Shown here: in pieces, positions 9,197 through 18,382 of the stretch
Position numbering within the stretch: position 1 is the stretch's first letter
Layout of the letters: each line of letters starts with the position of its first letter
From: Escherichia coli
GTDB taxonomy: Bacteria > Pseudomonadota > Gammaproteobacteria > Enterobacterales > Enterobacteriaceae
DNA: 64,000 bases
Reading direction: 5' to 3' (one strand)
Assembly: GCF_003991155.1 (NCBI RefSeq)
Contig: NZ_CP031293.1
Translations under genes and position numbers: made by a program
The notes under the pieces: model-generated
Told to the model about the DNA's origin: nothing
Databases searched by the model: none
What the model saw: only the letters and a program-made list of their open reading frames with translations

Positions 9197-10657
9197 TTAT
9201 TCATCTTTCGGCGCAGAATGCTGGCGACCAAAAATCACCTCCATCCGCGCACCGCCCATCATGCTCTCTCCGGCGACGATTTTACCCTCATATTGCTCGG
9301 TGATTTCGCGGGCTACCGCCAGCCCCACACCTTGCCCAGGGCGTAAAGTATCAACCCGTTGACCACGGTCGAAAATGACCTCTCGCTTGCTTAATGGAAT
9401 ACCGGGGCCATCATCCTCGACCACAATATAGAGATGCTCGTCGGTTTGCCTTGCAGAAATTTCGACAAACTCGAGGCAATATTTACAGGCATTATCCAGC
9501 ACATTGCCCATCACCTCGACAAAATCGTTCTGCTCACCAACAAAGCTGATCTCTGGCGAAATATCGAGAGAGATATTGACCCCTTTGCGTTGATACACTT
9601 TGTTCAGCGCCGAGGTGAGATTGTCCAACAGTGGGGCGACCGGATGCAGCTCGCGGCTAAGCAATGTCCCGCCGCGCATACTGGCACGATGCAGGTAGTA
9701 GCCAATTTGCTGTGAAATGCGGCTGATTTGCTCCAGCATTACCGGCTCAGCATCACTGACGCTCATCTTCTCACTACGCAGAGAACGCAGCGTACTTTGC
9801 AGCACCGCCAGTGGCGTTTTCAGACTATGGGTCAGGTCGGTGAGCGTTGTACGATATTTGTCGTAACGTTCGCGTTCACTTTTTAACAATCGGTTCAGGT
9901 TTCGTACCAGACTGGTCAGTTCTCGCGTTGTGGCTGGATTGAGCAATTCGCGGTTATGTTCTTCCAGTTCGCGGACTTCTTTTGCCAGGGCTTCGATGGG
10001 GCGTAAACTCCACCAGGCGGCGACCCACAGCAGCGGGATCACTAACAGCAGATTGGCTGAGAGCACATAGATAAACCAGCTCCAGACCATATAGGAACTT
10101 TTTAGCTCCACCGGAATGGTATCCACCACCACAATGGTTAACTTTGGCATCCGCGATGTTGCCGGGTAGACGTTTACCGCCACCGAGTGGGTCATCTCCG
10201 CGTCGTCATCATCTTCCCGCACTTCCTGCAACTGTTGCTGTATCGAATGATCTCCACTCAGCAAGAGGCTGGTATCGTTAACATCCGCTTCAATTTCATG
10301 AAAACCATTCGATTTCAGCCAGTCAGGCTGGATCATCTTCATCAGCCAGGGCACGTCACGTTGCGCCCATAAAAGCTGCCCGTTCTCATCATAAATTAGC
10401 GTCATGGTGGGGCTTTGCTTGTCGATATTTTCGGGTAACTCGACATGCAACTTATTGTTTTCCCACTTCGCAAGGGTATAGAACAGATTGCTCTCGCCAC
10501 GTAACAGCCGAAACGTAGTTTTATCGAAACTGACGCTATAACCGATCAGCGCAACCATTCCGTAGGCAAGCGAAAGCACCAATACTACTGCTGCAGTTGC
10601 TAACAGAAAACGTACCCGCAGCGAGAGCGGGAAAAAAAGACGCAGTAATTTTTTCAT
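9197..10657 (-). CDS. phoQ: sensor histidine kinase PhoQ
   Basis: 486-aa ORF with two TM segments, HAMP, H-box ([11 protein letters not shown]) and ATPase domain; overlaps phoP stop. Confidence 0.95.
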
Positions 10658-11328
10658 CAGCGCAATTCGAACAGATAGCCCTGGCCGCGAACGGTGGTAA
10701 TCACTTCTTGCGGATATTGTGCCTGAATTTTTTTGCGCAGACGTCCCATCAGTACATCAATGGTATGGCTTTCCCGCAGCTCCGCATCCGGGTAGAGTTG
10801 TAGCATTAACGAATCTTTGCTGACCACTTTGCCATTATTGCGTATCAACGTTTCCATAATGGTGTATTCGAACGCGGTCAGTTTGATCACTTCGTCATTA
10901 ATAGATAATTCACGGCGGGAGAGATCAACCTGAAACGGTGGTAGCGAAATGACCTGTGAAGCCAGACCGCTATTACGCCGCATTAATGCCTGCATTCGCG
11001 CCATCACCTCTTCAATATGAAACGGTTTAGTCACGTAATCATCAGCACCGGCACTTAATACTTCGACTTTGTCCTGCCAGCTTTCACGGGCGGTTAATAC
11101 CAGAATCGGCAGTGAAACATCGTTGCTACGCCAGCGGCGAATCAGTGACAGACCGTCCTCGTCAGGCAATCCGAGATCGACAATCGCAATATCCGGTAAA
11201 TGTTCATTGAGATAATAATCGGCTTCTTTGGCATCTTCTGCGTCATCGACCTGATGACCAGCATCCTGAATCTGAACTTTAAGATGGTGACGTAACAACG
11301 CATTGTCTTCAACAACCAGTACGCGCAT
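10657..11328 (-). CDS. phoP: response regulator PhoP
   Basis: 223-aa OmpR-family ORF (MRVLVVEDN...). Confidence 0.95.
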
Positions 11329-11387: not shown

Positions 11388-11405
11388 GTAAACATTAAAT
11401 AAACC
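11388..11405 (-). promoter_or_regulatory. PhoP box (direct repeat GGTTTA-N5-TGTTTA) in the phoPQ autoregulated promoter
   Basis: minus-strand sequence GGTTTATTTAATGTTTA about 60 nt upstream of the phoP start; matches the known PhoP hexamer repeat spacing. Confidence 0.55.
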
Positions 11406-16003: not shown

Positions 16004-17254
16004 ATGGAAAGTAAAGTAGTTGTTCCGGCACAAGGCAAGAAGATCACCCTGCAAAACGGCAAACTCAACGTTCCTGAAAATCCGATTATCCCTTACATTG
16101 AAGGTGATGGAATCGGTGTAGATGTAACCCCAGCCATGCTGAAAGTGGTCGACGCTGCAGTCGAGAAAGCCTATAAAGGCGAGCGTAAAATCTCCTGGAT
16201 GGAAATTTACACCGGTGAAAAATCCACACAGGTTTACGGTCAGGATGTCTGGCTGCCTGCTGAAACCCTTGATCTGATTCGTGAATATCGCGTTGCCATT
16301 AAAGGCCCGCTGACCACTCCGGTTGGTGGCGGTATTCGCTCTCTCAACGTTGCTCTGCGCCAGGAACTGGATCTCTACATCTGCCTGCGTCCGGTACGTT
16401 ACTATCAGGGCACTCCAAGCCCGGTTAAACACCCTGAACTGACCGATATGGTTATCTTCCGTGAAAACTCGGAAGACATTTATGCGGGTATCGAATGGAA
16501 AGCAGACTCTGCCGACGCTGAGAAAGTGATTAAATTCCTGCGTGAAGAGATGGGCGTGAAGAAAATTCGCTTCCCGGAACATTGCGGTATCGGTATTAAG
16601 CCGTGTTCTGAAGAAGGCACCAAACGTCTGGTTCGTGCAGCGATCGAATACGCAATTGCTAACGATCGTGACTCTGTGACCCTGGTGCACAAAGGCAACA
16701 TCATGAAGTTCACCGAAGGCGCGTTTAAAGACTGGGGCTACCAGCTGGCGCGTGAAGAGTTTGGCGGTGAACTGATCGACGGCGGCCCGTGGCTGAAAGT
16801 TAAAAACCCGAACACCGGCAAAGAGATCGTCATTAAAGACGTGATTGCTGACGCATTCCTGCAACAGATCCTGCTGCGTCCGGCTGAATATGATGTTATC
16901 GCCTGTATGAACCTGAACGGTGACTACATTTCTGACGCCCTGGCAGCACAGGTTGGCGGTATCGGTATCGCCCCTGGCGCAAACATCGGTGACGAATGCG
17001 CCCTGTTTGAAGCCACCCACGGTACTGCGCCGAAATATGCCGGTCAGGACAAAGTAAACCCAGGCTCTATTATTCTCTCCGCTGAGATGATGTTACGCCA
17101 TATGGGTTGGACTGAAGCCGCAGACCTGATTGTTAAAGGTATGGAAGGCGCGATCAACGCGAAGACTGTAACCTATGACTTCGAACGTCTGATGGAAGGC
17201 GCTAAACTGCTGAAATGTTCAGAGTTTGGTGATGCGATCATCAAGAATATGTAA
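16004..17254 (+). CDS. icd: isocitrate dehydrogenase (NADP)
   Basis: 416-aa ORF recognised as Icd; intact native 3' end. Confidence 0.95.
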
Positions 17255-17277
17255 TCACTACATGTGTTAAATATTGT

Positions 17278-17312
17278 AACGGGCGTATAACACGCCCGTT
17301 GTTTTATTTATG
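17278..17312 (+). terminator. icd rho-independent terminator
   Basis: hairpin aacgggcgtataacacgcccgtt followed by a T-rich run, 24 nt after the icd stop. Confidence 0.6.
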
Positions 17313-17356
17313 TGGATATTATTAATATCATGTCGAGAATATTTATATGAAGACCA

Positions 17357-17680
17357 TTACTTGAGCCCATATGGGCATATTTTTATAATGCAACTATTAT
17401 GCAAACATTTATTTGTTATTTTGCTTTCTCCTGGAGGACACTCTTGACTGCTTTTGAGTAAACTCCATAAATCCTTGTTGAATGGTGCGATGTTATAAAT
17501 AGTAATAGGATATTCTTTATCCTTAAGGATAATACCATACTTAACCGGTGTAAATATACTTCCAGGAGGGAGAAATATAGTAGATTGATACCAGATGATC
17601 ATTTTCATATCACCCCATATGGCTGAAAAAGATATGCCGCATGTAGGTTGAATTACCGTGTCAATTACTATCCACTTCAT
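17357..17680 (-). CDS. iraM: anti-adaptor protein IraM (RpoS stabiliser)
   Basis: 107-aa ORF recognised as IraM/YcgW; sits in very AT-rich DNA. Confidence 0.8.
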
Positions 17681-18147
17681 TTGTTATGTCTTATCCCACG
17701 GTGCTTAATATAATTCATTTGGATGTTCATTTCTTGATTTTGCATATGTGTATATTACTCCCAAAAAAATAAATTAATTAAAAATTAATGTCATTATCTA
17801 TATAAAACAAAATTTAAAGCAAGGAATCTCAATAGAGATTAAACAAAATGAGATTTAGTGAAAACATTAAATTATTCACTTCGTTTTAGATTTGTTTAGC
17901 TAAAATGTTATACATTCAAATGACTGAATATTCTGTAATTAAAACATAGCCTTTATGCTACTTTGAGCCAATTTGCTAAACATTATGGTTGGCCTTTTAA
18001 TATAACGATAATGATGAATATAAGCATGACCTGAGAATAAGGTTTCAATTTTTTAGTTATATAGGAATGGTTAAACCCGTTCCTGACTAAAATACATATA
18101 ATCGGATGATGACTAAACCAAAACACATGTGCGTTAAGTATTGAAAC

Positions 18148-18180
18148 GGGCGTATGGCACGCCCGTTGGTTTTATAAATA
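18148..18180 (+). repeat. second copy of the icd terminator hairpin
   Basis: aacgggcgtatggcacgcccgttggtttta is near-identical to 17278..17306; the two direct copies flank iraM. Confidence 0.5.
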
Positions 18181-18382
18181 TGTTAACCGTTATAAAATAA
18201 CGTATAGAAAGTCAAGTGATCACATTTCAAATATCAAGTTGATAGTATTGATCTGGTGATTATTTATGGGTGGCAATAAAAAGACAGTATTACTCATCCA
18301 TATGAATAGTCTCTGCACTTTTATTTCCATTATGCTAATGCCTTACTGAATTATGAAGCATTTTTTAAGCATCCAACTTTAG

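Follow-up and report, generated by a model that had tools for sequence, protein, structure and literature searches.

Where PhoP may act upstream of iraM: candidate PhoP boxes in an AT-rich islet of Escherichia coli

Which sequence does PhoP use to induce iraM? The gene lies on the minus strand (17357-17680) of a 64,000-nt stretch of the Escherichia coli contig NZ_CP031293.1, referred to here as the window, and encodes the 107-residue anti-adaptor IraM; its open reading frame is a 100% match to RefSeq iraM and aligns over its full length with NCBIfam model NF007393 (170.2 bits; cut-off 121), which places it in that family. According to the literature, low Mg2+, acid stress (via SafA) and loss of MgrB each lead PhoQ/PhoP to induce iraM, and IraM sequesters RssB so that RpoS is stabilised; the gene is a link between RpoS, the general stress sigma factor, and PhoQ/PhoP, the sensor of Mg2+ and of the envelope. 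That iraM is under PhoPQ control, as a first-pass annotation of the window had stated, is repeated in two papers, one of which names it as a PhoQP target whose expression rises when mgrB deficiency makes PhoQP hyperactive (PMC10746255) and the other of which describes it as PhoP-induced (PMC10948607).

A PhoP-induced, H-NS-silenced iraM is biology already known. Knowing where PhoP binds shows by what route a gene of foreign origin, silenced by H-NS, joined a core regulon, and what is gained here is a corrected and testable placement of that site, together with a box in reverse orientation that recurs across the protein family. The reading that we favour, at a probability of roughly 0.6, is that PhoP binds a site that we call A, and probably also a second one, site B, driving a predicted iraM promoter whose -10 element would be TAAATT.

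The PhoP-box scan and a predicted iraM promoter

The first-pass annotation had put forward as a possible PhoP site the imperfect direct repeat tttgtttagctaaaatgttatac, which is found exactly at 17891-17913 on the plus strand, 211-233 nt upstream of the iraM start codon. Its two hexamers, TGTTTA (17893-17898) and TGTTAT (17906-17911), are separated by 7 nt. In a PhoP-box test that requires a (T/G)GTTTA direct repeat with a spacer of exactly 5 nt, the spacer found in nine of the nine boxes tabulated by Lin 2018 (PMC5775216), the pair failed, and TGTTTA-N7-TGTTAT is not a PhoP box. When the same TGTTTA is read in the canonical register (17893-17909, plus strand; TGTTTAgctaaAATGTT, or TGTTTA-gctaa-AATGTT), it scores 3.6 bits and ranks 459 of about 128,000 positions.

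The weight-matrix scan that had been suggested as a check was run over both strands of the window, using a matrix built from the nine tabulated boxes. Promoter fragments with these boxes were shifted by PhoP in electrophoretic mobility shift assays, and three of them were footprinted (PMC5775216); their leave-one-out scores range from 8.2 to 20.7 bits. The PhoP box of the phoP promoter (GGTTTATTTAATGTTTA; 11389-11405, minus strand), a positive control within the window, scores 18.7 bits and is followed after 12 nt by CATAAT. Upstream of iraM, three matches outscore the canonical register of the first-pass repeat. Site A, CGTTTT-agatt-TGTTTA (CGTTTTagattTGTTTA; 17882-17898, plus strand), scores 12.6 bits and ranks fifth; it is reversed relative to iraM, lies 201 nt from its ATG, and pairs a CGTTTT at 17882-17887 with the very TGTTTA of the first-pass repeat. 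Site B, TGTTTA-atctc-TATTGA (TGTTTAatctcTATTGA; 17829-17845, minus strand), scores 11.7 bits, ranks eighth and has the orientation of iraM. Each has two mismatches to the consensus and the correct 5-nt spacer, and by sequence both fit the pattern of a PhoP box. The earlier proposal was thus right in outline, in that it pointed to the right location and to one half-site of site A, and wrong in register, in that it joined this half-site to TGTTAT across 7 nt.

Scores at the level of sites A and B are compatible with function, since the tabulated boxes go down to 8.2 bits and since at mgrB, itself a PhoP target (PMC8355897), the highest-scoring upstream match with the canonical 12-nt register reaches only 9.9 bits. 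A third match, site C (GCTTTA-aattt-TGTTTT, GCTTTAaatttTGTTTT; 17804-17820, minus strand), scores 9.9 bits and ranks 22nd. A G/A polymorphism turns its second half into TATTTT in K-12, where the score is 5.8 bits, and site C is probably not a functional box because it overlaps a -10-like element.

That element is TAAATT (17811-17816, minus strand), which is separated from site B by 12 nt (gattccttgctt; site B is followed by this spacer and then by TAAATT at 17816-17811) and which would be the core promoter element of iraM. It is invariant in 28 distinct haplotypes of the region that were assembled from ten genomes and 42 metagenome contigs. From its position, the predicted start of iraM transcription lies near 17803-17805 on the minus strand, which would give a 5' untranslated region (UTR) of ~123 nt. 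Site B is placed 12 nt from the predicted -10 element, whereas site A is distal, centred at about -87 from the predicted start, and reversed. The arrangement of a box, 12 nt and a -10 element is also found in phoP (CATAAT, in this window) and in mgtA (TATTAT) and mgrB (TAGTTT) of K-12, with 11 nt in yrbL.

Chance levels were estimated from dinucleotide-preserving shuffles of 17681-18140. In these, one site reaching 12.6 bits or more occurs with P=0.10 and any match with two or fewer mismatches with P=0.42. For three or more sites that score as those observed, which here fall within 95 bp, P is ~0.02, and the cluster of PhoP-box matches is mildly beyond chance. The composite of a box, 12 nt and TANNNT that is formed by site B appears in 0.4% of local shuffles. 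Only three such composites exist in the whole window, those of phoP, site B and site A, the last of which has TACATT (17911-17916, plus strand), a -10-like element of a possible divergent promoter, 12 nt downstream. The 460-nt region therefore holds two composites against 0.029 expected in shuffles, with P(>=2)=0.0004, a value that is indicative only because the spacing rule and the thresholds were set after the sites had been seen.

The reverse box in iraM and iraL, and the competing readings

The region is carried by about 3,860 of 5,426 complete E. coli genomes, most of which are 90-95% identical to this strain. Site A is unchanged in 26 of the 28 haplotypes, the other two being singleton variants. 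Both half-site cores of site B are kept in all 28; its spacer and the first base of its second half (T/C) vary. Just downstream of the predicted start, an indel at ~17785-17800 and a G tract also vary.

The K-12 iraM region closely resembles that of this strain: its 460-nt upstream segment is ~90% identical by BLAST (a longer pairwise alignment has a mean column identity of 96%), site A and the YmgK protein are identical, and the same flanking repeats are present. Sites A and B lie at K-12 coordinates 1,212,203-1,212,219 and 1,212,150-1,212,166, and the predicted start of transcription would fall near 1,212,124. This strain differs from K-12 in the second half of site B (TATTGA rather than CATTGA), in site C (TGTTTT rather than TATTTT), in a 7-nt insertion near 17785-17797, in GGGAG in place of G8, and in TAAAAT in place of TATAAT at 17901-17906. 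In addition, the e14 prophage, which separates icd from iraM in K-12, is missing here.

The comparison across the protein family was the most telling part of the analysis. Relatives of IraM with 63-65% identity are present in 46 phage records, mostly of Stx2 phages, and in E. albertii, and are of the iraL type; when the genome collection was scanned for orthologues outside E. coli, E. albertii iraL and one probable contaminant contig were the sole hits. Members of the iraL type (from uropathogenic E. coli, Shigella, E. albertii and Stx2 phages) and iraM form one protein family, and in both a reverse-oriented box lies upstream. For iraL this is the PhoP-box-like repeat TGTTTATTGTTTATTTA (15.4 bits), 95 nt upstream of the ATG, and for the iraL-like genes of Stx2 phages it is CGTTTATTCTTTGTTTA (16.7 bits) or TGTTTATTCTTTGTTTA (20.3 bits), also 95 nt from the ATG. 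Written in the orientation of the gene, the box reads TAAACAAATCTAAAACG in iraM, TAAATAAACAATAAACA in iraL and TAAACAAAGAATAAACG in Stx2 phages, and the phage variant of TAAACAAAGAATAAACG with a final A is the perfect consensus (20.3 bits). In the best local alignment, the reverse box is the only alignable segment between the upstream regions of iraM and of iraL and the phages; its best-conserved half-site is the gene-distal TAAACA, the reverse complement of the TGTTTA in the first-pass repeat. Reverse boxes of this quality have shuffle P values of 0.033 for iraM, 0.03 for iraL, and 0.008 and <0.0003 for the two phage types. The start of iraL transcription has been mapped in CFT073 (PMC4045071), and relative to it the iraL box spans about -79 to -63, with its centre at about -71.

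The two types also differ, in that the iraL-type box is 95 nt rather than 201 nt from the ATG, the remaining upstream DNA cannot be aligned, and iraL-type genes are located in prophage DNA beside stx2AB and yjhS, unlike the iraM locus. In the one phage genome that was inspected, LC567829, an iraL-like gene (2501-2824) adjoins stx2AB and yjhS, which encodes a 9-O-acetylneuraminic acid deacetylase. Among 14 unique upstream haplotypes of the iraL type, the box losses comprise one 7-nt slippage deletion (TAAATAAACA[ATAAACA]) and two replacements of the upstream DNA with a breakpoint at the box.

For ycgW of S. flexneri, a fall to 0.09 in a phoPQ deletion has been reported (PMC5775216). We take this gene to be of the iraL type because IraM of S. 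flexneri M90T is only 61.7% identical to K-12 IraM (PMC9496106); this low identity and the different locus of the Sf301 gene rule out the ycgW result as direct evidence for the present promoter.

The best-surviving alternative is that site A does not matter to iraM: only site B would work, in the manner of a classical activator that binds over the -35 region, and site A would have arisen by chance or be a non-functional relic. The 12 nt between site B and TAAATT are the canonical spacing that is seen in phoP, mgtA and mgrB, in a composite reached by few shuffles, and the first half of site B is a perfect, invariant TGTTTA; however, site B has no counterpart in the phage-type iraL promoters, where site A does have one, and it is weaker in K-12, while site A scores higher and varies only in two singletons. 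We regard this alternative as unlikely.

Several observations weigh against the reading that we prefer. Taken singly, each site is near chance for this composition (P ~0.1), and the composite statistic has the post hoc character noted above. The matrix was derived from only nine boxes, picked by consensus search and so possibly biased, and both sites contain a base unseen in these training boxes (T at position 6 of the first half of site A, A at position 2 of the second half of site B). In K-12, where PhoP dependence was shown, site B has three consensus mismatches (CATTGA) and scores 10.5 bits. The flanking blocks 17926-17879 and 17856-17799 are equally conserved, and within-species footprinting is without discriminating power because these long blocks are as invariant as the boxes. 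Across the family, the shuffle P of the reverse box is modest for iraM and iraL and strong only for the phage types, its centre differs (about -87 from a predicted start in iraM, about -71 in iraL), and it is lost or truncated in three of the 14 iraL-type haplotypes. Lastly, ycgW is absent from the list of PhoP-box genes of Lin 2018 (PMC5775216).

Carried to their end, some of these points lead to a second alternative, in which none of the matches is a PhoP site, T-rich hexamers being expected at 26% GC, and PhoP binds elsewhere or acts indirectly. In its favour, 42% of shuffles contain a match with up to two mismatches and 10% a site that reaches 12.6 bits, conservation extends over whole blocks and is not confined to the boxes, and ycgW is missing from the list of Lin 2018. 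It fits poorly with the clustering of the sites (P ~0.02), with two composites where 0.03 are expected, and with the recurrence of the reverse box at 15-20 bits in the iraL and phage lineages, and iraM is treated as a PhoP target; we consider it rather improbable.

It is also doubtful, a little more so, that site A serves a divergent plus-strand promoter with TACATT as its -10 element, a proposal that is compatible with the other readings. The box, 12 nt and TACATT do form a composite and the TACATT block is invariant, but this promoter is speculative because no -10-like element lies 12 nt from the reverse boxes of iraL or the phages. An RNA made from it, which we hold to be just as doubtful, would be ~250 nt long, antisense to ymgK, and would stop within the right-hand icd terminator repeat, at a terminator-like plus-strand hairpin (18145-18167). 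Although the plus-strand RNA 17920-18176 folds at z=-2.5, it has no convincing open reading frame on that strand and no Rfam match, and neither its internal hairpin nor the terminator stem is maintained in K-12.

That PhoP binds the pair TGTTTA 17893-17898 and TGTTAT 17906-17911 as such is highly improbable: both hexamers are half-site-like and both are invariant, but the spacer between them is polymorphic (TAAAAT, or TATAAT in 20 of the 28 haplotypes) as well as being 7 nt rather than the 5 nt of all tabulated boxes, and the low score and rank given above stand against it.

In the reading that we prefer, phosphorylated PhoP would most likely bind the reverse-oriented site A at 17882-17898, the site retained across the iraM/iraL family, and would probably also bind the proximal site B at 17829-17845; A and B together would drive a sigma-70 promoter that has TAAATT as its -10 element and starts near 17803-17805.

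The iraM islet and its surroundings

The extreme AT-richness that the first-pass annotation had noticed upstream of iraM is borne out. The GC content of 17700-18140 is 26.3%, as against 48.5% for the whole window, and this is the lowest 441-nt stretch in the 64 kb: only 0.05% of 441-nt windows are equally low, and every window below 30% GC starts at 17441-17841. With an AT content well above average, 17700-18140 has the composition of H-NS-silenced xenogeneic DNA, and a scan for the H-NS motif TCGATAAATT gave a single weak match with two mismatches, too little to be informative. H-NS is said to repress iraM independently of PhoP, reportedly from work by Battesti and colleagues in 2012. On the plus strand, 17901-17906 reads TATAAT in 20 of the 28 haplotypes, including K-12, and TAAAAT in this strain; in DNA bound by H-NS, the TATAAT form may serve as an antisense promoter or be a spurious one. 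A SlyA-like palindrome, TTTAGCTAAA (17894-17903), was considered and rejected, as it is broken in the majority haplotype (TTTAGCTATA).

Together with its upstream region and ymgK, iraM forms an 867-bp islet of 29% GC, the inner part of which spans 17306-18129. The islet is bordered by two direct repeats on the plus strand, the left at 17263-17305, with the icd terminator hairpin (17278-17300), and the right at 18130-18172, which is 86% identical to the left and contains the hairpin 18145-18167. The repeats are 43 nt long, extendable to ~55-85 nt, lie 867 nt apart from start to start, and occur nowhere else in the window. The islet is missing, and the repeat present just once, in about 29% of complete E. 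coli genomes; CFT073 is one of these, and its single copy is a hybrid. This patchy presence, the direct repeats at the borders and the phage-borne homologues agree with the earlier supposition that the DNA was horizontally acquired.

A prophage-remnant origin of the islet is plausible, because the homology that phage 21 shares with the chromosome stops at ...GTTGTTTTAT, precisely where the left border of the islet lies, and because homologues of iraM are phage-borne. The integration site of phage 21 is in icd, and the phage brings along the 3' end of icd and the icd terminator; a similarity search beside the right repeat found no icd coding remnant beyond the terminator region. More tentatively, with rather less than even odds in our estimate, the reverse PhoP box may travel with iraM and iraL as a phage-borne accessory cassette (a 'moron'), the iraM islet being the remnant of an icd-integrating phage. 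If this holds, lambdoid phages, Stx2 phages included, would carry an RssB anti-adaptor that answers to the host PhoQ/PhoP system from the outset, and lysogeny would make RpoS stabilisation depend on signals of low Mg2+ or acid; prophages would import a PhoP-responsive RpoS stabiliser, in Stx2 phages next to Shiga-toxin genes.

Within the interval that had been flagged as AT-rich lies ymgK (17939-17983, minus strand; RefSeq annotation), which encodes a 14-residue small protein (MFSKLAQSSIKAMF) that has been seen by epitope tagging (PMC6001520). In the 12 haplotypes listed, the changes in ymgK are five synonymous, one non-synonymous and one frameshift, the last in a low-coverage contig, a pattern that suggests purifying selection on the peptide. 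A 22-codon upstream open reading frame (17677-17745, minus strand), the TGA stop of which overlaps the iraM ATG (ATGA), is intact in 28 of 28 haplotypes. It was ruled out as a conserved leader peptide, its substitutions being mostly non-synonymous, and its coding status is doubtful; if it matters at all, it may do so through the act of translation itself, coupled to that of iraM.

The variable G tract (17758-17762, minus strand) falls in the predicted 5' UTR of iraM and reads GGGAG here and G8 in K-12. Among strains it ranges from 3 to 12 G and, with the preceding GA, yields GAGGGG, which resembles a Shine-Dalgarno sequence; the tract may be phase-variable or a hot spot of mutation. No RNA structure was found in the predicted 5' UTR (z = +1.4 in this strain, +1.6 in K-12), and a search of the locus against Rfam gave zero matches above threshold.

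The gene order around the islet is rluE, icd (16004-17254, plus strand), iraM, ymgK, ymgL (18220-18330, minus strand), ycgX, bluR and then a large open reading frame, which from its position in the K-12 gene order we take to be bluF. The locus sequence is 100% identical to that of E. coli strain 2016C-3878. Some 6 kb from iraM lie an intact phoP (10657-11328, minus strand; 480 bits to the PhoP equivalog model NF008078) and an intact 486-residue open reading frame (9197-10657, minus strand) that is presumably phoQ, a name that we give it from position, size and K-12 gene order only; the trans-acting two-component system is intact in this strain.

In other strains, mobile elements have disrupted the locus naturally: in Ec-U5 an IS1 element stands in place of the iraM 5' end, and in AR_0067 an IS200C element adjoins the right repeat. 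We also note that an iraM upstream haplotype of the K-12 type is present on a 558-bp contig, NZ_MTSD02000045.1, filed as Oceanospirillum linum ATCC 11336, and that the protein of this contig is 98% identical to the IraM of this window over residues 1-47. The contig almost certainly entered the Oceanospirillum linum assembly as an E. coli contaminant.

Comparison with other PhoP-controlled promoters

At phoP P1, mgtA P1, mgrB and yrbL, the PhoP box replaces the -35 region and lies 11-12 nt upstream of the -10 element, and site B with its predicted -10 element TAAATT would be arranged alike. The iraM sites are lower in score, at 10.5-12.6 bits for sites A and B compared with 18-22 bits in phoP, mgtA and yrbL, while the best mgrB match has 9.9 bits. 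Site A, distal and reversed, recalls a different type of promoter. Zwir and colleagues in 2012 and Will and colleagues in 2014 are said to have described Salmonella ugtL and pagC as acquired, H-NS-silenced genes that have distal or reverse PhoP boxes and are activated by counter-silencing. In this comparison, the ugtL/pagC type and iraM would share AT-rich foreign DNA, a non-canonical placement of the box and repression by H-NS.

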